A stretch of 64,000 nucleotides of DNA, from assembly GCA_017503285.1 (NCBI GenBank), contig JAFVTH010000022.1, positions 4,749-68,748 on the forward strand. Direction: 5' to 3'. The translations under genes were made by a program, and so were the position numbers. Position 1 is the first letter of the stretch. The number at the start of each line of letters is the position of its first letter. Origin of the DNA: Clostridia bacterium (GTDB taxonomy: Bacteria > Bacillota > Clostridia > Oscillospirales > CAG-272). Positions 1,683 to 13,447 of this stretch are shown piece by piece. The notes below the pieces were generated by a model, which ran no database searches, had not been told where the DNA came from, and saw nothing but the letters and a program-made list of their open reading frames with translations.

Positions 1683-1874
1683 TTATTTGTCAAATGCCGG
1701 GTTGTAGCCGTAGAAGTTCTTTGAATCCATATTGTCCTGTGCTATTCTTAGTGCGTCACAGAAGCGCTGATAGTGAACTACCTCGCGGGCACGAAGGAAC
1801 TTAATTGCGTCGCAAACATCCGGGTCGTCAACAAGCCTTAAAATGTTGTCGTAGGTTGTTCTTGCCTTTTGCTC
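1683..1874 (-). CDS. cotJC: cotJC 3' segment (C-terminal 63 codons of the spore-coat manganese-catalase-family protein CotJC), separated from its 5' segment by the 9.1-kb element
   Basis: Encodes EQKARTTYDNILRLVDDPDVCDAIKFLRAREVVHYQRFCDALRIAQ..., collinear with B. subtilis CotJC EEKARATYQWLIDISDDPDLNDSLRFLREREIVHSMRF. It has no credible start or RBS of its own. The TTG-initiated extension to 1910 in the ORF track lies in element DNA. Confidence 0.85.
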   Translation of the reverse strand, partial: EQKARTTYDNILRLVDDPDVCDAIKFLRAREVVHYQRFCDALRIAQDNMDSKNFYGYNPAFDK

Positions 1875-1900
1875 CGGTGCATTGTTACTAATGCAACCTA
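1875..1900. repeat. Element-side recombination arm (left junction), the inverted partner of 10935..10960
   Basis: cggtgcattgttactaatgcaaccta matches the reverse complement of 10935..10960 at 20 of 26 positions. It starts immediately after the TC dinucleotide at 1873..1874 and overlaps the recombinase stop codon (1898..1900). Confidence 0.7.
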
Positions 1901-3382
1901 AAAATTCCAAAAAATTGTAACGGGGACGATTTTTGTGCCCTTTACCCTTTTTTCAACTACTATTTTCTCAACAAGCATATCCACAAGCTCTCTTGTCAAA
2001 TGTGTCGGGTGTATATAACTATCCAAATTTAGCTCTTTTTCGCCTTTTTGGGTGGTTTTATAGACACGTCTTAGGCTTTTTTGCTCGTTTTCGATTTTTA
2101 TAAGCATTTGCAAAAACAAGTCCTTGCTAATTATTCCGTTTAGCTTATCCTCGTAAATTTGTCTGATTTTGTCCTCGTTTTTCTTAATTTTTTCTTCTGT
2201 GGTTTTGGTATGGCTAAGTGGTTTTATTTTTAACGAAAGCAGCCTTTTTTTGTCTAAATACCGGTCAAATATTTTGTTAAGCTCGGAAAGAACTGTTTTC
2301 TCCAAGCTATCAACCGATATAAACGAGCCTATGCATTCATTTTTAGAAATATAGTGAGTTGGGCATTTTAAGTATGTCTTGCCTTTTGACTTGGAGCTTT
2401 TTAGGGTATAGCCACAATGGGCACAGAAAACCTTTTTTGAAAATACACCTATTTCTCCTGCTTTTTGCGGTCTTGTTTTTTCTGAAAGCATTGCCTGAGC
2501 CTTTTCCCACACTATTTTGTCTATTATAGGTGGGTGGGTGTTTTTTACTATGTACCACCTGTCCCTTGGACGAGGCTTGTTTATCTTGCTTTTGTATGAC
2601 ACGCTGCCATACTTACCCTGCACCATATTTCCTATATACATTTGGTTGTTTAGAATCGATGAAATCGTGGAATACCGCCACAGGGTGCCACTTTTTTCAT
2701 TATTTGTCTTAAATTTTAGTCCCTTTTGTCTTTTGTATGATGAGGGGTTTGGCACACCTTTTTCGTTAAGTGTCTTTGCTATCTTGCTTTTGCCATAACC
2801 ACTGATATAAAGATTAAAAATCAGCCTTACTATCTCTGCTGCCTCCGGGTCGATTTTTAATTTTCCTCTTTCGTTTTCGTCCTTGAGGTAGCCATAAAGT
2901 GCAAAGGAGCCTATGTGTAAGCCGTTTTTCCTTTTAATATCAAACACGCTCTTTATGCTTTCTGACATATCCTCTAAATACCACTCGTTTACAAGCCCGT
3001 TTATTTGTCTTGCCTTTTTGTTGCCCTTTATTTCTGTATCTATGCCATCAACAATGCTCACAAAGCGAATGCCCCACAAGGGAAAAAGGTAGTGTATATA
3101 CCTTTCTACCAGCTCCATCTCCCTTGTGAAGCGTGACTGGGTCTTGCAAAGAATGATTTGAAAAAGTCCTTTCTTGGCATCCTCTATCATTTGATTAAAG
3201 GCAGGGCGATTGCGGTCTGCACCTGTATAGTCGTCATCGCTGTAGATTTTATATATTCCCCAGCCCTTTTTTTCTGCATAATCCCTAAGCATTTGCTTTT
3301 GATTTATAATACTTTCCGAGTCCTTTTCTTCTCTTTTATTCCTGTCCTCCTCGGAGAGTCTACAATAAATTGCGACCTGCAT
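1898..3382 (-). CDS. Large serine recombinase (resolvase/invertase N-domain + recombinase domain + zinc ribbon + coiled coil)
   Basis: 494 aa from ATG 3382 (RBS GAGGAAAG). Contains MQVAIYCRLSEEDRNK...SESIINQ (catalytic Ser motif), a conserved central recombinase region and a zinc ribbon CAHCGYTLKS..KCPTH. The track's TTG start at 3397 is less likely. Confidence 0.9.
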   Translation of the reverse strand: MQVAIYCRLSEEDRNKREEKDSESIINQKQMLRDYAEKKGWGIYKIYSDDDYTGADRNRPAFNQMIEDAKKGLFQIILCKTQSRFTREMELVERYIHYLFPLWGIRFVSIVDGIDTEIKGNKKARQINGLVNEWYLEDMSESIKSVFDIKRKNGLHIGSFALYGYLKDENERGKLKIDPEAAEIVRLIFNLYISGYGKSKIAKTLNEKGVPNPSSYKRQKGLKFKTNNEKSGTLWRYSTISSILNNQMYIGNMVQGKYGSVSYKSKINKPRPRDRWYIVKNTHPPIIDKIVWEKAQAMLSEKTRPQKAGEIGVFSKKVFCAHCGYTLKSSKSKGKTYLKCPTHYISKNECIGSFISVDSLEKTVLSELNKIFDRYLDKKRLLSLKIKPLSHTKTTEEKIKKNEDKIRQIYEDKLNGIISKDLFLQMLIKIENEQKSLRRVYKTTQKGEKELNLDSYIHPTHLTRELVDMLVEKIVVEKRVKGTKIVPVTIFWNF

Positions 3383-3479
3383 TTTTTCTTTCCTCAAGCG
3401 CCTTTATTTGCTCAATATACCATTTTGTAAGCTCCTGCTTTTTTAGCTCATTCTTGAAGATGTTTGTTACTTTTTCCAT
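3360..3479 (-). CDS. Hypothetical 39-aa ORF overlapping the recombinase start (possible directionality-factor candidate, or just 5' UTR)
   Basis: MEKVTNIFKNELKKQELTKWYIEQIKALEERKNAGRNLL. Its 3' end overlaps the recombinase start by 23 nt in another frame. No Shine-Dalgarno sequence is visible. A TAAAAT box ends 5 nt before the ATG, so only a leaderless mRNA would work. Confidence 0.2.
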   Translation of the reverse strand: MEKVTNIFKNELKKQELTKWYIEQIKALEERKNAGRNLL

Positions 3480-3504
3480 GTTACATTTTATGTTAGATAT
3501 GAAA

Positions 3505-3530
3505 GAAAAAAGACAGGAAAACCCTGTCTT
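3505..3530 (-). terminator. Rho-independent terminator of the STAND gene
   Basis: Minus strand GACAGG-gtttt-CCTGTC followed by TTTTTT, starting 6 nt after the stop at 3536. Confidence 0.75.
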
Positions 3531-3535
3531 TTTAA

Positions 3536-6500
3536 TTAATTTAGCTTTTCCTTTATCGTCTCTATAAGCTCTTGGATTTGCTTTTTTTGCTCCTGACAAG
3601 CAAGCTCAAGCACAGCTTCAGCCTCGCTATTAAACAATTGTAGATACTTTTTAGTGCCTTCGCTATCTATTTCATAAATTTGAATAAGCATTTCCCCGCA
3701 AGCGATTACCATATTGTGGCTTTGCGCTTCGTTTATTTGCGCATGCATCTTAGCAAGCATTATGACAGCCTCACAGGACTTGGTTCTTATATCTTCCTTT
3801 ATTAGCAAACCGTATTTATCTGCTGTGCCAACAAGTCTAACAGCATATTTTTCAGCAAGACGCATTTCCTCGCGCTTTAGTGCAAATTCAAGCCCCTCGT
3901 TGTAAGTATTTATAAGCTGTTCTAAGGCTTTATCGCTATTTGTTTTGATAACCAATAGCTCCATTGCCCTTGCTTTGCTTGCTATACAGCTTTGTCTTTT
4001 TTGCTTGTCGTGGAAATATTTACGTTTAGCATAGGCGTTCTTTAGTTTATCAAAGGTTTGTGCAAGTACATTGCAGTAATCCTCCGCCCCTTGCTCATCC
4101 ATAGCGTTTATAGTGCTTTCCACCTGTTCAAGGGCAAGCCTTGCATGCTTCAGAGCGTTAGGATAGTACATTTTTCTGTCATTTTCAGCTATAATTTCGA
4201 CAGTTGTTACAGCAAAATTAAAGGCTTTTTCTAAGTACTCCCACTCTTTTTCCTTATCTCCTGCATTTTTATATCCGTTTGCAATAGATAAAAGAATGTC
4301 GTAGACCTTCAAATCCTCATAGGTGCATTCTTCCCTTGCGTCGATTTCATATAGTTGTCCTATAAGATCAAGAATCTCCTCTTGCATATCTATGCCAAGT
4401 AGAGCTGTTTCCTTGTTTTCAGAGCTTGTGTATGCAGTTGCCATCTCAATCCTTGCATGTAATGGATAAAGAATTTTATCCTGCTCATCGGCAAAATCCA
4501 GGTTGTTTATTATTTCAAATGCCATTTCTGCCTCATCAAGGCGCTTTACATTTGAAGCGGCAGCTATCATTTCTCTGTAAATCTCGCTTTTTGCCTCTGG
4601 AGCAAGTATGCTTTTATCTCCAAGCATGCTAAGCATAGTGTCTGCTACATTTTCTAAAGCTTCCCTCTCGGCAATAATTGATACAGCTTCCTTCATGAGC
4701 TCAAAGCTATAATCGTATTTATCAGTTATTTTACAGAGTCTAATGATTTTTGCAAGCTTATAATTCATAAGTGCTATATCAAGTGGCTCTTCACCATCAA
4801 GTGCTTTAATGATTTCTCTTGCCCTTGATAAATAATCATAGGAATTTATGTAACTTGAAGAGCCATAGTATGTGCATCCAAGACGATAATATGTTATATA
4901 TTGTAGCTTTTTGTAAATATTATCATCAAAATCATTTACAAGCCCGTCTATAACTTGCCTTGCCTCCTTGCCTATCCTTTGGGCACGAAGATAGCCACGC
5001 ATAGTGTCGGTAAATATGCAAGCCTCCATATATCTTGCAAGAAGACAATATTTCGAAAGCCTTGATTCCTTGCTATTTTGACCTTCTAAAATTGCCATTC
5101 TTCTTTTGTAGGCTCTTTCTAACATTTCTCTGCCTTCATTACACTCAGAAATCATAAGAAAGCTGAGATTGCCAAAAATAGCGTTTTCATAATCGCAGTT
5201 TTGATAATCCTTTTCAAAGTTCTTTTCCTTGTCAAGACCAAAAACCGACCATTCAGTAGCTTCATTTTGACTATATTCAAATAGAGGTGACATGGCATCC
5301 ATCATCGCCTGGTCCCTATTCATAGCTCCACTTAAGTCGCCAAAATACATAAGTCCGATGACATTTATGCCTGCAAGAGCCTGCTTGCTTTTAGAGGTTT
5401 GGGTTTCGTCGCTTATTTTTTTATAAAGGCTTTTTGCCTTTTTATAGGCTTTTTTTGCATCATTATCCTTTATAGCGCCACCAAGCATTTTCGTAATTGA
5501 CGAAAAGATTGAAGCTTGGGAATCGTTTTCCTCGAACATACCCATACCGCACCTTGCAACCGCAGTGTTTACTATATCCTGATAAAGTGAGGCAAGCACA
5601 TCTTGTACCTCGTAGCTTACCACAGGCTTTGTGTCCATATACGCCTCAATTTCTTTGATTAGCTGGCTGGAAAAATCTACTTCAAGCGCGCTACTATACT
5701 GCTTTTCCTTTGACAAAATCGCACGCTCGGCAAGGGTCAATCTTCTATATATTTCCGCTTTTTTGATTAGATAACTTTCTTTTTCCAGATTTTTTTCATC
5801 AAGCAAAGCCACTGCCTTTAAAAAGTAATCCTTTGCGTTTTGACCTGCTTTTTGCTCACCCATACCGATGTAAGCCTCAAGCAAGGTATCCTTATCGTCG
5901 CTGTCTTCTAAAAGCTCAATTGCCTTTTGATAATATTCCGTTGCACACAAGCAATACTCTGTACCACTAAAGGTGTTATAGCCCTTTGCCACCCCAGTAT
6001 ATGCCCTTGCCAAGGCAGTTTTATTTTCCAGCCTCTGTGCATAGCTAACAGCTGTTTCATAGCTTATGCACATATCCTCCATTGAAAAGCCAAGGCTGAT
6101 TTCTGCACTTACATTTCCAAGTAAAATATAGGCATTTATCAAAAGCTCAAGCATTTTGTCATCCTGCGGCAATGATTCTATTAGCTTGATGCTTGCATAC
6201 AAGCTTCTCGCTCTTGCCTCAAGCTGGCTTTTTGTTTGTCCGAAATATGATGGTAATGTATTAACTAAGAATTCTAACACCTCATAGCTTGGATTTTCTT
6301 TGATGTAAGAGCAAAGCTCGTCAAGCCATACGCCCTCATCCTCCAAGCATTTTTCTGCTAAGGCAGATGCAACATATGAAAGCGATTCCTTGGTGGCTGA
6401 CACAATTTGCTCCACAAAGGATAATTTGTTATCAGCACAAATTGCGTGATAAGCACATTCTTGAGCCTTTAGTAAATCATCGTTTTCTAAGCTTGATATA

Positions 6501-8239
6501 TATTTCAAAAGCTGGGCGTGGATTTTACTCTTTTCCTCTGCGAGGGTATGGCACAAGCCCTGTCTAAAGCTACGGTGGACAAAGTCAACCCTACCATCTG
6601 CACGAATAAATAGTGAGTCTCTTAAATAGTGAATAAATGAAGAAAAATCAAGTCCGTTCCATTGGTCCTTAAGGAGAGCCTTTAGATCGCCTTGCCTCAA
6701 GCCATAGCGAGAAAAAGCAAGATATCTAGCACATTTTCCTATAAGCTCAGGGTTGATTCTTTCAGCTGAATCAAGAAACAGGCAAACGCTCATTTCCTCA
6801 AGGGTGTGTGGTACATTTTCAAGCAAGGATAATTGATGCTCCGTTATGGCTGACATACCATCACCAGCCTCACGAATACGCAAAAAGTCCTCCTCGTTCA
6901 TCATAACGAGGCGTTGCATTAACAAGTCAAGATAAAGTGGGTTTTTTGCCCCTGCTTTTCTCATAACGGCATTTTTTACCTCTTTGGAAAGCTCTCTGCG
7001 TCTTGCCTTTTCAATGCCTACTATTATTTCACCTATTTCTTCGTCGCTTGCGCATTTCCAAGTATATTTGGATAGGTGTGTGCTTGTCTTAAAATCGCTT
7101 GTGGCGGTTGAAACGAATTTTACATATTTTGATGTTTTGGTTGGAACAAAAATAAGCTGGTCACGGTTTTCGTCTGCTGAAAGCTGGTCAAGGCTATCTA
7201 CCAAAATAGCAACCATTTGCTTTTTAACTTGGCATTGGTTTGTTAAGAGGTATAGTCTATTTTTTAATTCCTCTATTGTGTTAATTTTTAGCTCTCTTGT
7301 AAGTCCAAGCTGTAATTCCAATGCTTCTACAATAACCTCTAAAACACCATATGCATTACTTGTTTTGGTGGTAAGAGACGAAAAAACAGGTATAGTTTTA
7401 TATCCCTTTTTCTCAAAAGCATCGTTATAATATGCCATTAGTGTGCTTTTACCACTTCCACTTTCGCCAAGAATTAAAGCGCCTGCATCATTTGCGTTTA
7501 TGTTTGAAAATAGCTTATCGGCTTCTTTCCTTTTTGCGTAAAAATGAGTTAGCTTGTCCTTGGCATATAGCCTATGCACCCTTAGTTCCTTTTCAATAGG
7601 AGTCAGGCTGGCTGTTGCCTGCCAGTCTGATTTTAGGATTGACAAAACATCCTCTGCCACCATTTTGGCAAAGGAATCTATTTGTGTAAGCTCATTATTT
7701 TCCCATTTTACCCTGTAGGTTTTTACAGAGCCACCACTAATTTTCATTATCCTTTGCTTAAGCTCCTTAAGCTTTTGATAATGATAGTCGTCCTCTTGCT
7801 TGTAAATATCAGGGATATCACCCTCGATTTCTCTAAAATAGAAAAGAGTTCGTCCGTTTTTTCTCTTTTCATTAAGAGCGCCATATTCTATTTCCAATGT
7901 GGTAACGCTCTTTTCCAAATCGTCAAGCTTGATACCATATCTTTTGGCAGCAGAGCCAACGATTTTTTCATCTGGAATCCAACCGTAGCGATATCCTAAA
8001 ATAACAACCATAGGTGGCTGACAATGGTCGATTTCGTCAAGGCAAACATTTAAAACCTTTGTTGAGCCTGCGTCACTTTCCATATCCTCGGTATTTACGC
8101 CCCAACGAAGGTCGCATATTTCCACGCTTTCCCCCCATTTTTTTGCTTCCTCATATAGAATAGGGAGAGTGATTTTTTGCAGAGCATCGCGCTCCTTATG
8201 CATATCCTTAAAGGTGCTTGATACAAATATTGTTTTCAT
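3536..8239 (-). CDS. NLR-like STAND NTPase: DUF4062-type N-terminal domain + NACHT-like P-loop NTPase + long TPR-like repeat region (1567 aa)
   Basis: The start is moved to ATG 8239 (GGAGG 8 nt upstream); the 25-codon extension in the track has no RBS. The N-terminus MKTIFVSSTFKDMHKERDAL...ICDLRWGV...CLDEIDHC..VVILGYRYGWIP matches the DUF4062 pattern seen at the N-terminus of NWD1-type NACHT proteins. Walker A is GESGSGKST (7442..7468) and Walker B is MVAILVDSLDQL (7181..7216, like the NACHT DGxDE motif). The C-terminal ~1100 aa are helical TPR-like repeats (for example ARAYTGVAKGYNTFSG..YYQKAIELLE). Confidence 0.75.
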   Translation of the reverse strand: MKTIFVSSTFKDMHKERDALQKITLPILYEEAKKWGESVEICDLRWGVNTEDMESDAGSTKVLNVCLDEIDHCQPPMVVILGYRYGWIPDEKIVGSAAKRYGIKLDDLEKSVTTLEIEYGALNEKRKNGRTLFYFREIEGDIPDIYKQEDDYHYQKLKELKQRIMKISGGSVKTYRVKWENNELTQIDSFAKMVAEDVLSILKSDWQATASLTPIEKELRVHRLYAKDKLTHFYAKRKEADKLFSNINANDAGALILGESGSGKSTLMAYYNDAFEKKGYKTIPVFSSLTTKTSNAYGVLEVIVEALELQLGLTRELKINTIEELKNRLYLLTNQCQVKKQMVAILVDSLDQLSADENRDQLIFVPTKTSKYVKFVSTATSDFKTSTHLSKYTWKCASDEEIGEIIVGIEKARRRELSKEVKNAVMRKAGAKNPLYLDLLMQRLVMMNEEDFLRIREAGDGMSAITEHQLSLLENVPHTLEEMSVCLFLDSAERINPELIGKCARYLAFSRYGLRQGDLKALLKDQWNGLDFSSFIHYLRDSLFIRADGRVDFVHRSFRQGLCHTLAEEKSKIHAQLLKYISSLENDDLLKAQECAYHAICADNKLSFVEQIVSATKESLSYVASALAEKCLEDEGVWLDELCSYIKENPSYEVLEFLVNTLPSYFGQTKSQLEARARSLYASIKLIESLPQDDKMLELLINAYILLGNVSAEISLGFSMEDMCISYETAVSYAQRLENKTALARAYTGVAKGYNTFSGTEYCLCATEYYQKAIELLEDSDDKDTLLEAYIGMGEQKAGQNAKDYFLKAVALLDEKNLEKESYLIKKAEIYRRLTLAERAILSKEKQYSSALEVDFSSQLIKEIEAYMDTKPVVSYEVQDVLASLYQDIVNTAVARCGMGMFEENDSQASIFSSITKMLGGAIKDNDAKKAYKKAKSLYKKISDETQTSKSKQALAGINVIGLMYFGDLSGAMNRDQAMMDAMSPLFEYSQNEATEWSVFGLDKEKNFEKDYQNCDYENAIFGNLSFLMISECNEGREMLERAYKRRMAILEGQNSKESRLSKYCLLARYMEACIFTDTMRGYLRAQRIGKEARQVIDGLVNDFDDNIYKKLQYITYYRLGCTYYGSSSYINSYDYLSRAREIIKALDGEEPLDIALMNYKLAKIIRLCKITDKYDYSFELMKEAVSIIAEREALENVADTMLSMLGDKSILAPEAKSEIYREMIAAASNVKRLDEAEMAFEIINNLDFADEQDKILYPLHARIEMATAYTSSENKETALLGIDMQEEILDLIGQLYEIDAREECTYEDLKVYDILLSIANGYKNAGDKEKEWEYLEKAFNFAVTTVEIIAENDRKMYYPNALKHARLALEQVESTINAMDEQGAEDYCNVLAQTFDKLKNAYAKRKYFHDKQKRQSCIASKARAMELLVIKTNSDKALEQLINTYNEGLEFALKREEMRLAEKYAVRLVGTADKYGLLIKEDIRTKSCEAVIMLAKMHAQINEAQSHNMVIACGEMLIQIYEIDSEGTKKYLQLFNSEAEAVLELACQEQKKQIQELIETIKEKLN

Positions 8240-8270
8240 ACAGATTCCTCCAAATGATGTCCTTATCTTA

Positions 8271-8299
8271 ATTATACAGGTTTTTTTCACATATTGCAA
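8271..8299 (-). promoter_or_regulatory. SigmaA-type promoter of the STAND gene
   Basis: Minus strand TTGCAA-17 nt-TATAAT, about 30 nt upstream of the RBS. Confidence 0.6.
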
Positions 8300-8300
8300 G

Positions 8301-8327
8301 AAAAAAAGCGACACGGGGGTCGCTTTT
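8301..8327 (-). terminator. Terminator of asnA
   Basis: GCGAC-CCCCGT-GTCGC hairpin with a T-run on the minus strand, directly after the asnA stop (8328..8330). Confidence 0.7.
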
Positions 8328-9335
8328 TTATAGTAGAACTATGTTGTTTTCCTTGCACACCTTATATGTTTCCTCGTCCCAAATGGAAACCTGCACCTCG
8401 CCAATATGCGCCTTGCCGAGAAGAAGCATGGAAAGACGAGATTGACCGATACCGCCACCCATTGTAAGCGGAAGCTCGCCATTTAAGAGCATTTTGTGGA
8501 ATGGAAGGCTTCTCCTTTCATCCTTGCCGGATGCGCTAAGCTGGTAGTCAAGTGATTTTTCATCAACTCTAATACCCATTGAGGAAATTTCAAAGGCGTG
8601 GCCGAGCAGCTCATTATAGAAAAGAATGTCGCCGTTTAGCTCCCAGTCATCATAGTCGGGGGCACGGTTGTCATGAGGCATACCGGACTTAAGCTTGCCA
8701 CCGATTTTCATAATGAAGGCTGTGCCAACCTCCTTTAGGTAAAGGTCCTCCCTTTCCTTAGAGGTTTTGCCGGGGTACATATCCTCAAGCTCCTGTGAGG
8801 TGATAAATGAAACCTCACGATTGAGATTTACATTAATTTGTGGGTAGGAGCATTTTAGAACATCAAGTGTTTCGCAAATTGCGCCAACGATGCATTTTAC
8901 CACCGTTTTCATATATTCTATGGTGCGTGTTTCGGTTGTTATAATCTTTTCCCAGTCCCATTGGTCGGTGTAGATGGAGTGGATATTATCCATTTCCTCA
9001 TCACGGCGAATAGCGTTCATATCTGTATAGATGCCCTCGCCTGCTGAAAAGCCGTATTCCTTAAGTGCCATACGCTTCCATTTCGCAAGAGAGTGAACGA
9101 TAACCGCGCTTTTACCGGTTTCCTTAATTTCAAAGTCAACTGCACGCTCAACACCGCTCAAATCGTCGTTAATACCCATATTTGGGTCAACGAACAATGG
9201 CGCAGATACACGCCTTAGGTTGAGGGCAAGGCAAAGCTTATCCTCGAAGGTCCTTTTAAGAGTGCCGATGGCTCTTTGTGTTTCATACATTGTAAGGGCA
9301 GATTTGTAGCCCTTGGGAATAATAATCTTGCTCAT
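8328..9335 (-). CDS. asnA: Aspartate-ammonia ligase (asparagine synthetase A)
   Basis: 335 aa from ATG 9335 (MSKIIIPKGYKS). Collinear with E. coli AsnA, including HSLAKWKR, DQWDWEK, APDYDDW, GGGIGQSRL and HIGEVQ. Confidence 0.9.
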   Translation of the reverse strand: MSKIIIPKGYKSALTMYETQRAIGTLKRTFEDKLCLALNLRRVSAPLFVDPNMGINDDLSGVERAVDFEIKETGKSAVIVHSLAKWKRMALKEYGFSAGEGIYTDMNAIRRDEEMDNIHSIYTDQWDWEKIITTETRTIEYMKTVVKCIVGAICETLDVLKCSYPQINVNLNREVSFITSQELEDMYPGKTSKEREDLYLKEVGTAFIMKIGGKLKSGMPHDNRAPDYDDWELNGDILFYNELLGHAFEISSMGIRVDEKSLDYQLSASGKDERRSLPFHKMLLNGELPLTMGGGIGQSRLSMLLLGKAHIGEVQVSIWDEETYKVCKENNIVLL

Positions 9336-9431
9336 AATATGTCCTTTATGCCTTACGGGAGTGAAACGAATCAGTTTTGGAACGGACAAAAAACCCGTCT
9401 TTGGCGTTAAAATTTTTTGAAATATTTTTAT

Positions 9432-9456
9432 AAAAGGGGCTTTGAAGCCCCCTTTG
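9432..9456 (-). terminator. Terminator of asnS
   Basis: GGGGC/GCCCC hairpin followed by TTTT on the minus strand, about 10 nt after the asnS stop. Confidence 0.6.
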
Positions 9457-9465
9457 TTTCTTGAA

Positions 9466-10842
9466 TTAGAGGCTACCTACTGTTCTTGGGAACAAAAGTG
9501 TATCTCTTATGTTTTGTACGCCTGTTAGATACATCATGGCTCTGTCAAAGCCAAGACCGAAACCACTATGTGGAACGCTGCCAAACTTTCTTGTATCAAG
9601 GTATTCCTTGTACATTTCAAGCGGCATGCCACGCTGTAGCATTGCACTTTCAAGCTTCTTGTAGTCCCATTCTCTTTCACTGCAGCCGATGATTTCGCGA
9701 ATGCCAGGAACTAAAAGGTCAGTTGCGGCAACGGTTTTTCCGTCGTCATTTTGCTTCATATAGAACGCCTTAATATCCTTTGGATAATCAACAACGAATA
9801 CAGGCTTCTTAAAGTATTCATCAGTTAGGTACTTCTCGTGCTCTGTCTGAAGGTCACAGCCCCACTCAACAGGATACTTAAAGTCCTTGCCACTCTTTTT
9901 GAGAACCTCAACAGCCTCGGTATAGGTAATTCTACCAAAGTCGCTATTTACAACGTTATTTAGCTTGTCAATAAGACCGGGCTCAACCCATTGATTAAAG
10001 AACTGAAGCTCCTCCGAGCAAACGTCCATAACATAGCGGATGATGTACTTAATAAAGTCCTCGGCGATTTCGATAATATCATCAATTTCAGCAAAGCAAA
10101 CCTCAGGCTCAATCTGCCAGAACTCTGCTGCGTGACGAGTTGTATTACTATGCTCTGCGCGGAAGGTTGGACCAAAGGTGTAAATCCTACCAAGACCCAT
10201 AGCAGCCATTTCGCCCTCTAGCTGAGCAGAAACGGTAAGACCTGCCTTTTGACCGAAGAAGTCGTTTTGATAATACTCCTCCTCGCTCTTAAAATCGGTT
10301 GTCCAAGGCTGAGTTGTTACACGGAACATCTCGCCTGCGCCCTCACAGTCACTACCTGTGATGATTGGTGCGTGAACATATTTATAATCGTTTTCGTTAA
10401 AGTACTTGTGTACAGCAAAGGAAAGCTGGTTACGAACTGCAAAAACAGCCTCGAAGTATCTTGCCCTTGGACGAAGATGTGGGATTGTACGAAGGAACTC
10501 AAGAGTATGTCTCTTCTTCTGGAGAGGATAATCCTGTGGACACTCGCCCAAAACCTTAATATCAGTAACGGTGATTTCATATCCGTTCTTTTCAGATACG
10601 ATAAACTTGCCCTCAACACGGAGTGAGGCACCAACCACCATTGCATTTTTCATATCATCAAGCTGGAGATTTTCCTTTTCCAAAATGAGCTGAATATTCT
10701 TAAGGCAGGTGCCATCATTAAGCTCAATAAAGGAAATAGTTTTAGAATCTCTTGCTGTTCTAACCCAACCACAAATAACTACGCTTTGGTCAATATAATC
10801 CTGTGGGTTTTGGAAAAGCTTTTTTATGTCTGTATGCTTCAT
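9466..10842 (-). CDS. asnS: Asparaginyl-tRNA synthetase (class IIb)
   Basis: 458 aa from ATG 10842 (MKHTDIKKLF). An N-terminal OB-fold anticodon-binding region is followed by a class II core (FRAE..TTRHAAEFWQIEPE, GFGLGFDR). ATG 10860 is an alternative start. Confidence 0.9.
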   Translation of the reverse strand: MKHTDIKKLFQNPQDYIDQSVVICGWVRTARDSKTISFIELNDGTCLKNIQLILEKENLQLDDMKNAMVVGASLRVEGKFIVSEKNGYEITVTDIKVLGECPQDYPLQKKRHTLEFLRTIPHLRPRARYFEAVFAVRNQLSFAVHKYFNENDYKYVHAPIITGSDCEGAGEMFRVTTQPWTTDFKSEEEYYQNDFFGQKAGLTVSAQLEGEMAAMGLGRIYTFGPTFRAEHSNTTRHAAEFWQIEPEVCFAEIDDIIEIAEDFIKYIIRYVMDVCSEELQFFNQWVEPGLIDKLNNVVNSDFGRITYTEAVEVLKKSGKDFKYPVEWGCDLQTEHEKYLTDEYFKKPVFVVDYPKDIKAFYMKQNDDGKTVAATDLLVPGIREIIGCSEREWDYKKLESAMLQRGMPLEMYKEYLDTRKFGSVPHSGFGLGFDRAMMYLTGVQNIRDTLLFPRTVGSL

Positions 10843-10883
10843 TTTGAACATAGCCCCCATAAATATTTATAATTAATATGATT

Positions 10884-10912
10884 ATTATACAACTTTTATA
10901 TTTACAAGTCAA
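10884..10912 (-). promoter_or_regulatory. SigmaA-type promoter of asnS, inside the element
   Basis: Minus strand TTGACT-17 nt-TATAAT. It sits between the right junction and asnS. Confidence 0.65.
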
Positions 10913-10934
10913 CAACTTTTTTTATTTTTTGCAT

Positions 10935-10960
10935 AAGCTTGCATTTGTAGCTATGCACCA
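10935..10960. repeat. Element-side recombination arm (right junction), the inverted partner of 1875..1900
   Basis: aagcttgcatttgtagctatgcacca. Its reverse complement, tggtgcatagctacaaatgcaagctt, matches 1875..1900 at 20 of 26 positions. It ends immediately before the TC at 10961..10962. Confidence 0.7.
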
Positions 10961-11367
10961 TCTGCTGCTAAGTCCTCGTTTAAGTCTGTTATAACATCGC
11001 CCTTGGACTGGAATTGAGCTGCGCTGTATGGGAAGCCACTGGCTGCAACCGGGTATATGCCTGTTGTGTGGTCTACAAAGTAGGTGTCAAAGCCACTCTT
11101 TACTATTTCGTCAGGGGTTAGGTTTCTTGTAAGCTGATAGAGGATTGCGGATATCATCTCAAAGTGCGCAAGCTCCTCCGTGCCAACATCCGTTAGGATT
11201 CCAACCACCTTGGAGTATGGCATTGCTATTCTTTGAGTAAGGTAGCGAAGCGATGCTCCGATTTCTCCATCAGGTCCACCTAATTGGCTGACTATAATTT
11301 GAGCATATTTTGGGTTTGGATTTTTAATGTTTACAGGGTATTGAAGCTTTTTCTCGTATTGCCACAT
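10961..11367 (-). CDS. cotJC: cotJC 5' segment (N-terminal 135 codons plus the first 2 nt of the split Glu codon); as integrated, the frame runs 3 codons into element DNA to a TAG at 10951
   Basis: MWQYEKKLQYPVNIKNPNPKYAQIIVSQLGGPDGEIGASLRYLTQR...LTDVGTEELAHFEMI...SKGDVITDLNEDLAA is collinear with B. subtilis CotJC MWVYEKKLQYPVKV...LTDIGTEEFAHLEMI...AKGDPIADLYEDIAA. RBS GGAGG. Confidence 0.9.
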
Positions 11368-11370
11368 ATA

Positions 11371-11637
11371 TTATTTCCTCCCCTCGTCGTTTTGCCATGG
11401 CCATGGTCCCTCTGTCCATTGCCAGCTTGTTGCATCCTCCGGCATTGTAATAGGTCCATATTTTTGCTCATATTCTGCCCTTGCCCTTGCCTCAAGCTTT
11501 TTGTACTTGTTGTAAAAGTCCAAGGCAGCCTTGGAGTCCGGGTAGGCATCAAGATACAAAAGCGCCTCGTATACAGCAAAGGAATAGCTTTGAAGCTCTC
11601 TTAGGCATCTTTGTCTGGTTCTGTCATTTTTCATCAT
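11371..11637 (-). CDS. cotJB: Spore coat protein CotJB
   Basis: 88 aa with LQSYSFAVYEALLYLDAYPDSKAAL and the C-terminal WQWTEGPWPWQ signature. Strong RBS GGGGAGGGG. Confidence 0.85.
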   Translation of the reverse strand: MMKNDRTRQRCLRELQSYSFAVYEALLYLDAYPDSKAALDFYNKYKKLEARARAEYEQKYGPITMPEDATSWQWTEGPWPWQNDEGRK

Positions 11638-11928
11638 TTACAGACACCCCTCCCCACCATTTTGTCTTTTGTTGCCACAGCCACTGCGCATAAAGGGCTT
11701 GTGAAGCTGGGAAAAGATTGTGCCATTGACTAATGCAATTTCAGGGTCGTAAAGACTACAAAAATCCTGTCTTACAGGGTAAACCATAGCAAGATGGGGC
11801 GACCCTGTGTTTGAATTTGTATGATTTTCGCACTTTGACTCTGCTTTAGCAATAAATGCAGAAAAGGCATTAAAATCTGCTTCTCTTTGTCTTCTTGACA
11901 TAGAATCAAGTCTCATATTGTTCTCCAT
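11638..11928 (-). CDS. cotJA: Spore coat-associated protein CotJA
   Basis: LAMVYPVRQDFCSLYDPEIALVNGTIFSQLHKPF matches the CotJA signature. The start is ATG 11928, or more likely ATG 11916 (GGAG 6 nt upstream). The 176-aa form in the track, reaching 12168, crosses the divergent promoter region and is rejected. Confidence 0.8.
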   Translation of the reverse strand: MENNMRLDSMSRRQREADFNAFSAFIAKAESKCENHTNSNTGSPHLAMVYPVRQDFCSLYDPEIALVNGTIFSQLHKPFMRSGCGNKRQNGGEGCL

Positions 11929-11952
11929 TCTGAGCCTTTTCGGCTCTTTAAT

Positions 11953-11979
11953 AGCATATGACAAAATAAGACAATATTC
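11953..11979 (-). promoter_or_regulatory. Candidate sigmaE-type (mother-cell) promoter of cotJABC
   Basis: Minus strand GAATATT-12 nt-CATATGCT, compared with the B. subtilis sigmaE consensus kmATATT / CATACAmT. cotJ is sigmaE-dependent in B. subtilis. The spacer may be a little short. Confidence 0.35.
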
Positions 11980-12091
11980 TACTTTCTTTTTATTTATACC
12001 GGTAAAATTGTTGTAATTTTTTTCTTTTCTCTTCCTTTTTTTGTTTTTTGGTGCTATAATGACCTTATATATTCTAAAAAGGAGCTTACTT

Positions 12092-13447
12092 ATGAATATA
12101 GTTATTATCGGCCTTGGCACCATTGGCGAAACAGTCCTTAAAAGCCTTTCCGGCGAGGGACACACCATAACAATTATTGACGGAAACGAAAATAAGGTTG
12201 AGTCCCTAATTGAAAAGTATGATATTTTCGGCGTGGTTGGTAACGGCGCTTGTATGGATATTCAAAGGGAGGCCGGTGTTGAAAACGCTGACCTTGCTAT
12301 TGTTCTTACCAACAGTGATGAGCTTAATGTTTTTGCTTGTCTTGTTGCAAAAAGGCTTGGTGTGCAAAACACAATTGCTCGTGTAAGAAACCCAGACTAT
12401 CAGCAGCAAATTATAGATATGAAGGACACCCTTGGCCTTTCTATGATTGTAAATCCTGAGATGGAAACAGCACAGGAAATTTTTAATCTTATAAGCCTAC
12501 CCTCCATTGAGCAGGTTGAGCGTTTTGCTAAGGGCAAGGCACTTTTGGTTGAAATTTATCTTGAAAAGGGCTGCTCTCTTATCGGCGAAAGCCTTATTAC
12601 CATGTCAAAAAAGGTAAATACAAGGGTGCTTATCTGTGCTGTACAGCGCGGTGACCAGGTTGTTATACCTTCCGGTAACTTTGTGTTTGAAGAGGGTGAC
12701 TGCGTACACTTTACCTCTGATGCAAGCTCTCTTGACGACTTTTTAAGAGAGGTTAACATTGTTAGCTCCCCTCTTAAGAGAATTATGATTATTGGTGGTG
12801 GCAGAATCGGCTTTTATCTTGCCGAAATGCTTTCCTCTAAAAAATACGAAATCAAGCTTATGGCAAGCAATCTTGAGGAGGCTGAGGAGCTGGCGGAAAC
12901 TCTGCCTAAGGTTACTGTTATCCATGGTAATGGCACTCAGCACGACTTATTGATTGAAGAGGGCATTGAGGCTATGGACGCCTTTGTTGCTCTTACAAAA
13001 ATCGATGAGGAGAATATGATTGCCTCAATGTTTGCAAATAAGATGAAGGTAAAAAAGACTATCTCTCAAATTAAGAACGATAGCCTTTACGATATGCTTA
13101 GCGAGCTTGATATCGACAACAACGTTTCTCCTAAGAACATTGTTGCAAACAAAATTATAAGCTATGTGCGCGCCCTTGCAAACAAGCGTGGCAGTAACAT
13201 ACTTACACTTTATCGTCTTGTTAACAACCGGGTTGAGGCCCTTGAATTTCTTGCTAAAAAAGAGGAGAAGTTCTTTAACAAGCCTCTTAGAACTATTAAA
13301 ACAAAGGATAACTGCCTTGTTGCCTGCATTATCAGAGATGGCAAGGTTATTATCCCTGACGGTAATTCTTCAATTCAGCTTGGAGATAATGTTATCGTCG
13401 TTACCACACACAAAAGCTTTGATGACTTAAATGATATTCTTGATTAA
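12092..13447 (+). CDS. trkA: Trk system K+ uptake protein TrkA (double RCK)
   Basis: 451 aa from ATG 12092 (AAGGAG RBS). Two NAD-binding motifs, IIGLGTIG and IIGGGRIG, each followed by an RCK_C region. Confidence 0.85.
   Translation: MNIVIIGLGTIGETVLKSLSGEGHTITIIDGNENKVESLIEKYDIFGVVGNGACMDIQREAGVENADLAIVLTNSDELNVFACLVAKRLGVQNTIARVRNPDYQQQIIDMKDTLGLSMIVNPEMETAQEIFNLISLPSIEQVERFAKGKALLVEIYLEKGCSLIGESLITMSKKVNTRVLICAVQRGDQVVIPSGNFVFEEGDCVHFTSDASSLDDFLREVNIVSSPLKRIMIIGGGRIGFYLAEMLSSKKYEIKLMASNLEEAEELAETLPKVTVIHGNGTQHDLLIEEGIEAMDAFVALTKIDEENMIASMFANKMKVKKTISQIKNDSLYDMLSELDIDNNVSPKNIVANKIISYVRALANKRGSNILTLYRLVNNRVEALEFLAKKEEKFFNKPLRTIKTKDNCLVACIIRDGKVIIPDGNSSIQLGDNVIVVTTHKSFDDLNDILD

Follow-up and report, generated by a model that had tools for sequence, protein, structure and literature searches.

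The two stretches 1847..1900 and 10935..10988 of the window, by which we mean the whole 64,000-nt piece of DNA that was analysed, are best explained as the attL and attR of an element that a large serine recombinase has placed in the sporulation gene cotJC, with exchange at a TC dinucleotide (GA on the coding strand). The insertion would be reversible, and we give this reading a probability of about 0.8. According to it, the element (1875..10960, 9.1 kb) would have integrated through an exchange at TC with a 2-bp stagger, and the Glu136 codon takes its first two bases from this dinucleotide. On this view attP is split between the two arms on the element side and attB between the two host sides, attB itself lying within the conserved AAEQKAR metal-ligand motif. 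The recombinase at the left edge would rejoin the halves at TC, probably with a small upstream ORF as directionality factor, and the products of this reversal would be an intact cotJC and a 9.1-kb circle bearing attP. By analogy with skin, SPbeta and gin, and judging from a sigmaE-type promoter found in the family, excision would most likely take place in the mother cell during sporulation. The features concerned are as follows.

1683..1872, minus strand: C-terminal segment of cotJC (third base of Glu136, Q137 to stop; Pfam Mn_catalase profile positions 145-198; colinear with orthologues)
1873..1874: left TC core (coding-strand GA), where the 2-bp crossover is predicted, in register with the GA of 83 related junctions
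1875..1900: element-side arm beside the recombinase (P arm, coding orientation), in 20/26 dyad with the right arm and including the stop codon 1898-1900
1898..3382, minus strand: large serine recombinase, 494 aa from the ATG behind GAGGAAAG (Pfam Resolvase, Recombinase, Zn_ribbon_recom and DUF4368)
3360..3479, minus strand: 39-aa ORF that overlaps the start of the recombinase gene; a divergent version of the family small ORF and candidate directionality factor (family HMM)
3536..8314, minus strand: cargo gene with DUF4062 and STAND NTPase domains (start at 8239 and 1567 aa according to gene callers; Pfam DUF4062 and nSTAND1; gene call in L145)
8328..9389, minus strand: cargo gene asnA, aspartate-ammonia ligase (TIGR00669, 321.8 bits, above cut-off)
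9466..10860, minus strand: cargo gene asnS, asparaginyl-tRNA synthetase (NF003037, 611 bits; about 55% identical to the core asnS of the genus)
10935..10960: far-end element-side arm (P' arm), dyad partner of 1875..1900
10961..10962: right TC core
10963..11367, minus strand: N-terminal segment of cotJC (M1 to A135; Pfam Mn_catalase profile positions 1-150; 99% match to the joined protein)
11371..12168, minus strand: cotJB and cotJA, the upstream operon genes (Pfam CotJB and CotJA)

The interrupted cotJC gene and its junctions

The cotJA, cotJB, and cotJC genes form a minus-strand run from about 12168 down to 10963, where cotJC leaves the host sequence after ...GCA GCA GA and its frame then stops three codons on. 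The remainder of the gene (1683..1874) lies on the same strand 9.1 kb downstream. When the host flanks are joined at TC, a 597-nt ORF results, encoding a 198-aa CotJC that reads ...NEDLAAEQKAR..., just as the original prediction of an in-frame fusion restoring the Glu had it. Thirty intact cotJC genes, taken from genomes of the same genus and order, align with the joined gene without a gap at the junction, where these relatives have the codons GCN GCN GAG (GAA in one genome) CAA/CAG AAG, giving Ala-Ala-Glu in all of them. Both halves are intact ORFs, with 90-94% protein identity to the nearest intact orthologues. The sporulation gene is thus interrupted in such a way that precise excision would restore its frame, as the colinearity of the joined 198-aa product with the 30 intact genes indicates. 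At the empty site of the relatives the order is cotJA-cotJB-cotJC, followed by ppnK in about two thirds of the loci; this layout is the one expected for the window after excision, and neither asnS nor asnA was found near cotJC in the intact relatives. An exact-sequence look-up of the joined CotJC product returned no match on record. In Clostridioides difficile, cotJ-type Mn-catalase operons are sigmaK-dependent (PMC3789822).

It had further been proposed, by analogy with manganese catalases, that the split Glu is a metal ligand, and the alignment of Glu136 to two Mn catalases supports this. In the Lactobacillus plantarum enzyme 1JKU the counterpart of Glu136 is the Glu of the motif ...vvrEseAR... 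(residue 148, counted along the alignment), and in KatB 4R42 it is that of AAE; His167 aligns with residue 181 of 1JKU, and E35, E65, and H68 with residues 35, 66, and 69. We take residues 35, 66, 69, 148, and 181 of 1JKU to be the five metal ligands, Glu148 presumably being one of the Glu3His2 set. Mn catalases of this type have a Glu3His2 dimanganese site (PMC8347308). Glu136 is therefore a predicted metal ligand supported by alignment, and because the split passes through its codon, neither fragment of cotJC should be able to form the active site, a complete metal site being impossible in either of them.

The arm at 1875..1900 (CGGTGCATTGTTACTAATGCAACCTA) and the reverse complement of 10935..10960 (TGGTGCATAGCTACAAATGCAAGCTT) are identical at 20/26 positions. 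This recomputed value equals the one first put forward and exceeds the maximum of 17 matches among 20,000 random arm pairs drawn from the window (mean 6.7, SD 2.3). The same TC was found beside each arm, at 1873-1874 and at 10961-10962, and since the neighbouring bases differ between the junctions (C/A before, C/T after), TC is the entire common core and the sole common sequence of the two; a non-palindromic TC as core, which had been postulated for reasons of directionality, agrees with its presence at both junctions. A symmetry scan of the rebuilt attP placed the best dyad centre exactly at TC, with 20-21 of 26 matches, while the best of 300 random 122-nt pieces of the window, taken as a control, reached 19 (mean 13.2). 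The left arm also includes, as had been observed, the stop codon of the recombinase: its outermost triplet, 1898-1900, reads TAG on the minus strand. The 'weak dyad symmetry' ascribed to the host-side half-sites has to be abandoned, for in register they match at 2/26 positions, which is below chance level. The sites predicted for the window element are ...CTTGCCTTTTGC-TC-TGCTGCTAAGTCC... for attB and ...TAGCTATGCACCA-TC-CGGTGCATTGTTAC... for attP.

The cotJC gene is also broken elsewhere among the relatives, around residues 26-36, 59-65, and 173-180 (L037/L038 in G012, L039 in G045, L040/L041 in G049, L092, L095, L111, L112, and L121), and two of these additional break sites lie near the ligand motifs E35 and E65/H68. 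Some of these breaks are adjoined by unrelated serine recombinases (23-27% identity), and several genomes have two interruptions within one cotJC. One genome, G019, has an intact cotJC at C5:150822-151415 (94% identity) and, on another contig (C30:9-1784), a 55%-identical recombinase adjoining a C-terminal fragment of cotJC; this is either a second copy or a mixture of strains in the metagenome-assembled genome (MAG).

Element genes and the probable control of excision

The recombinase, the 39-aa ORF, the STAND gene, asnA, and asnS are all encoded on the minus strand. A good ribosome-binding site (RBS) precedes the recombinase, which is full length; its N-terminus is MQVAIYCRLSEED, in which a Y-C-R-L-S motif is readable, its domains PF00239, PF07508, and PF13408 are all above cut-off, its C-terminus matches DUF4368 weakly (PF14287, 28.1 bits with a cut-off of 25), and the protein belongs to the PHROG 95 integrases (1.4e-104). 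No phage genes were found in the window element, nor any conjugation or mobilisation genes in a Pfam search, and with the defence-system models the only match was a sub-threshold PADLOC match of the STAND protein. The G+C content of the element (39.8%, genome 41.9%) is not informative. The identical integrated element is present in four independent assemblies, that is, in all four contigs with this exact recombinase, and an assembly artefact or a chimeric contig is ruled out by this recurrence.

Relatives of the recombinase were collected by a scan of one genome per species, which found at least 473, and the best 80, with 51-55% identity to the window recombinase, were kept; they represent Lachnospiraceae, Oscillospiraceae, Anaerotignum, Anaerotruncus, Agathobaculum, Lacrimispora, and other groups. 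Over the full length, at least 80 homologues match at 51-56% identity. Directly before the recombinase, 79 of 83 loci encode on the same strand a small ORF of 45-55 aa with the consensus ..ICxSVFKSGEsTTsKxqFTKKWIELINrLEKNK... It matched no Pfam or PHROG family, which is usual for directionality factors because these share no common fold (PMC12286644); known partners of such recombinases measure 42 aa (GirX) and 72 aa (CD1234; PMC5595907, PMC5025042). The small ORF is a candidate recombination directionality factor. Most elements have upstream of it the sequence ..GTAATAGTGGACTTGCCGCTATTCATATAGTGTA.., that is, ATA-N17-CATAtAgT, the family promoter parts being AATAGTGGACTTGCC...CATATAGT. A strict pattern, ATA-N16-18-CATAnAnT, occurs in 18/38 unique upstream regions compared with 0.23% of controls, and a looser one in 32/38 compared with 2.3%. 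A sigmaE promoter has an ATA -35 and a CATA-type -10 element with 16-18 bp spacing (PMC3789822), and judging from these motifs the putative promoter of the family small ORF fits the sigmaE type. In two genomes (G019 and G035), TGGTATAAT stands between the small ORF and the recombinase and resembles a sigmaA promoter. Because the candidate directionality factor usually lies behind a sigmaE-type promoter, mother-cell excision is plausible for the family.

The source assembly is a 1.5-Mb MAG, 75% complete, in which SpoIVA was found and whose cotJABC genes lie in the window. The sigmaE and SpoIIID models had no match in this 75%-complete MAG. Near-complete genomes of the genus carry a sigmaE-like gene in 22 of 23 cases (327-346 bits). 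The sigmaE model found nothing at E <= 0.001 in the source MAG and gave a weak match in 10 of 14 control genomes. Any sigma-70-family gene should weakly match a sigmaE model. Several sigma-factor genes seem to be missing from the 75%-complete source assembly.

The genes that flank the core asnS in six relatives map to C5:72842-71424 and C5:71348-70113 of the source genome. They are only 75 nt apart there (C5:71349-71423), at a mid-contig position (the contig measures 115 kb), so that the ancestral site holds no asnS. The source assembly, a 75%-complete MAG, has a single asnS, the one on the element, which shares about 55% identity with the copy of the genus. We suggest, as a tentative idea, that the element may by now be an indispensable part of the chromosome through this sole asnS, held between intact recombination sites in a sporulation gene. 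If this is true and the element still excises, the removal of DNA from the mother cell would take with it a housekeeping translation gene and an immune gene, and the retention of the element in the germ line would be due to its asnS cargo and not to its own mobility.

The same insertion and the same crossover could also belong to an element that has become fixed, its excision absent, or rare and unregulated, and its cotJC permanently inactive. We regard this as unlikely, though by no means far-fetched. The small ORF of the window is the most divergent copy of the family: it has 39 aa, overlaps the recombinase start, and scores 18 bits against a leave-out family HMM (E = 0.01 over 26,964 ORFs). 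No RBS and no sigmaE-like promoter were found for this ORF, and the terminator of the STAND gene directly precedes the ORF, where relatives have the promoter. Regulated excision may thus be impaired in the window copy, and such a degenerate ORF is what a fixed element would show. The sole asnS, with its ancestral site empty, likewise speaks for fixation, since germ-line loss would be counter-selected, and so does the integrated state in all four assemblies. Essential cargo is, however, compatible with excision confined to the mother cell, and integrated-only assemblies are expected if only terminal cells excise. The two well-preserved halves of cotJC argue against permanent inactivity, as do the full-length recombinase and the arms, which are the most symmetric among the 12 non-redundant two-ended elements compared. 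We give more weight to an element that would still be excised, most likely in the mother cell, and the window copy may have kept this ability.

The predicted point of exchange across the recombinase family

A fragment of cotJC broken at residues 133-136 adjoins the recombinase in 74 of the 80 best homologues. From these loci 24 N-side and 59 C-side junctions were extracted, and all 83 switch between host and element at the same GA, in register. The recombinase-side arm has the consensus aaA.GTTGttCTTatatgaTtGCAgCA up to GA, and the far arm, from GA onwards, has the consensus TGGTGCAAT..TATAAGAACAAC, also written TGGTGCAAT....TAAGAACAAC; the two consensus arms are inverted copies of one another. 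In most elements the recombinase-side arm ends in GCAGCA, as the host does, so that most two-ended elements have 3-7 extra common bases before GA and their exchange point is ambiguous. Among 13 two-ended elements the common run ends directly after GA (once 1 nt later), and it extends 0-7 nt on the other side; in two of the 13, namely the window element and L112, GA alone is common to both ends. Serine recombinases cut with a 2-nt stagger. Together with a common run of GA alone, this mechanism points to exchange at GA/TC, although the phosphodiester bonds cut within or beside TC are indistinguishable from the sequence alone.

The two arms of an element also covary, with a mean of 17.2 matches within elements compared with 15.3 between elements (permutation p = 0.0005), which is expected if both arms are bound by the element's own recombinase. 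The outer arm motif is expected to be shifted by 5 bp between the half-sites of attP and those of attB (PMC3783163); weak peaks at +5 and -5, with about 5/10 matches, were observed, and our reading does not draw on them. The integrated copies comprise 53 with GA and 9 with TC, a count largely forced by geometry, and both orientations are present among them; for the polarity of the core, only free attP sites were counted as independent evidence. At one locus (L074, 6111-6200) the recombinase-proximal arm and TC are followed by G+C-rich DNA that corresponds neither to a second arm nor to cotJC; this may be an insertion into a different target or a decayed site.

Free attP sites were sought as both outer arm motifs, inverted, around GCAGA. 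Three un-integrated sites were found directly behind a recombinase gene, and in them both arms flank GA (two sites) or TC (one site); the arms predicted from attL and attR therefore coexist in nature. One site is in a match from a viral collection (L153/L154, IMG/VR UViG_3300045988_153380; 107,437 nt, rated 91% complete), which is a tailed phage with portal, tape-measure, minor-tail, and DNA-polymerase genes. In this 107-kb phage a 56%-identical recombinase is directly followed by AAAAGTTGTTCTTATAAGATTGCAGCA-GA-TGGTACGACCGTATAAGAACAAC, an intact attP in the middle of the genome, and the family small ORF is present as well. The other two are in the genome contigs L099 and L135, one with GA and one with TC after the recombinase-proximal arm. 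Both core polarities thus occur in free attP sites, matching the two insertion orientations of the integrated copies, and in size the family spans minimal elements of 3.8 kb as well as a phage of full size. In the GenBank phage set, no isolated phage carries this recombinase at more than 44% identity. Complete attP-like sites, with both arms around GA, were also observed in L150 (JAEIGA010110458.1, 1414-1461) and L151 (OGRO01001412.1), with no recombinase gene in about 4 kb around them and with ordinary metabolic or surface-protein genes as neighbours. The notion that the window junctions are the attP of a large serine recombinase split into attL and attR is supported by the recombinase domains, the imperfect dyad at a 2-bp core, the 83 family junctions, and the three free attP sites.

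A different origin of the insertion, a promiscuous transposon recombinase of the TnpX/TndX type that landed in cotJC by chance, appears very improbable to us. The DUF4368 match of 28 bits at the C-terminus and the GA core would suit such an enzyme, which needs no directionality factor: the targets of TndX always have a central GA (PMC4430133), and DUF4368 marks a clade of multi-targeting large serine recombinases (10.1101/2021.11.05.467528). However, insertion at one codon of one gene in 74 of the 80 best homologues is not promiscuous, a tightly linked small ORF is kept in 79 of 83 loci, and the window element has no conjugation or mobilisation genes. A crossover at another position within the arms, such as the palindromic TGCA located 4-7 nt inside the element, with the common TC as a coincidence, is hardly credible, for although 4/6 bases past TC are common to the left junction (CGGTGC) and the host (TGCTGC) and an in-frame product is conceivable, it would yield Ala-Pro-Glu in place of the Ala-Ala-Glu of all 30 intact relatives, it lies off the dyad centre, the 83 related junctions switch at GA with two elements having GA alone in common, and in free attP sites the arms directly flank GA or TC. 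Site-specific exchange at the TC within the Glu136 codon remains the explanation that we favour.

Comparison with known intervening elements

Elements that intervene in sporulation genes are well known, including skin in sigK, SPbeta in spsM, gin in gerE, and others (PMC4191935, PMC5595907, PMC5025042, PMC10747680). Interrupted cotJC genes have been noted as well: a skin-like element was reported in cotJC of Laceyella sacchari (10.1101/2022.02.25.481979), and Abe et al. (2013), cited in 10.1101/2021.11.22.469490, listed cotJC as one of the sporulation genes that are often interrupted. As far as the accessible parts of these reports go, they share with our case the target gene and the idea of an intervening element but concern Bacilli, contain no analysis of att sites or crossover, and do not mention the Clostridia family, its small ORF, or its promoter. 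Our literature search found no paper that pairs cotJC with large serine recombinases and no description of this Clostridia family, its crossover, small ORF, or promoter. Since an interrupted cotJC and this kind of element are already known, the window element adds a member, and the general picture of how such elements work is unchanged. What the window copy and L112 contribute is that their attL and attR have only the 2-bp core in common, narrowing the exchange point to two bases and so resolving the crossover for a family that counts hundreds of members among gut Clostridia. For work on recombinases, too, the family is a resource: it supplies matched attP/attB pairs by the dozen, in which the arms co-vary and the core occurs in either polarity, together with a linked candidate directionality factor.

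The closest counterpart is gin in gerE of Bacillus cereus ATCC 10987 (GirC with the 42-aa GirX; PMC5595907), which, like the window element, is a small non-prophage element in a mother-cell sporulation gene and combines a large serine recombinase with a tiny partner protein of no known family. It has a 27-bp imperfect inverted repeat around a central dinucleotide, comparable to the window arms, and its excision restores the reading frame, as is predicted for the window element. The target differs (gerE versus cotJC), as does the core (a 9-bp consensus versus 2 bp). In addition, the window element has a DUF4368-like recombinase tail and a cargo of STAND NTPase, asnA, and asnS, and its excision and the role of its partner protein are predictions.

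The skin element of C. difficile (skinCd; CD1231 with the 72-aa CD1234; PMC5025042) resembles the cotJC family in that a small ORF lies behind a sigmaE-type promoter and the recombinase behind an apparent sigmaA promoter (G019 and G035). In C. difficile, a constitutive recombinase is combined with a sigmaE-dependent directionality factor (PMC5025042), and judging from the promoter motifs the layout of the cotJC family would match this logic. The target of skinCd is sigK, its junctions have a 12-bp motif in common, the small proteins have no sequence similarity, and the window copy has no such promoter before its small ORF. Another parallel is SPbeta in spsM of Bacillus subtilis (SprA/SprB; PMC4191935, PMC5499854), where a phage-derived serine integrase rebuilds a spore-envelope gene in the mother cell; the cotJC family, too, has a full phage among its members, namely the 107-kb viral contig bearing a free attP. 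SPbeta differs from our element in its 16-bp core and its target gene, and the window element has no phage genes.

TndX of Tn5397 and TnpX of Tn4451 are, like the window enzyme, large serine recombinases of Clostridia with a DUF4368-type C-terminus and a central GA (PMC4430133). They differ in using several insertion sites, and TndX performs both integration and excision (PMC4430133), whereas the cotJC clade is site-specific and has a linked small ORF. DUF4368 was found in 63% of a multi-targeting recombinase clade versus 0.73% of site-specific ones (10.1101/2021.11.05.467528); the cotJC clade has a DUF4368 tail yet is site-specific. With this element cotJC joins sigK, spsM, gerE, spoVR, spoVFB, and yabG as a gene rebuilt by excision, which is predicted in the present case.
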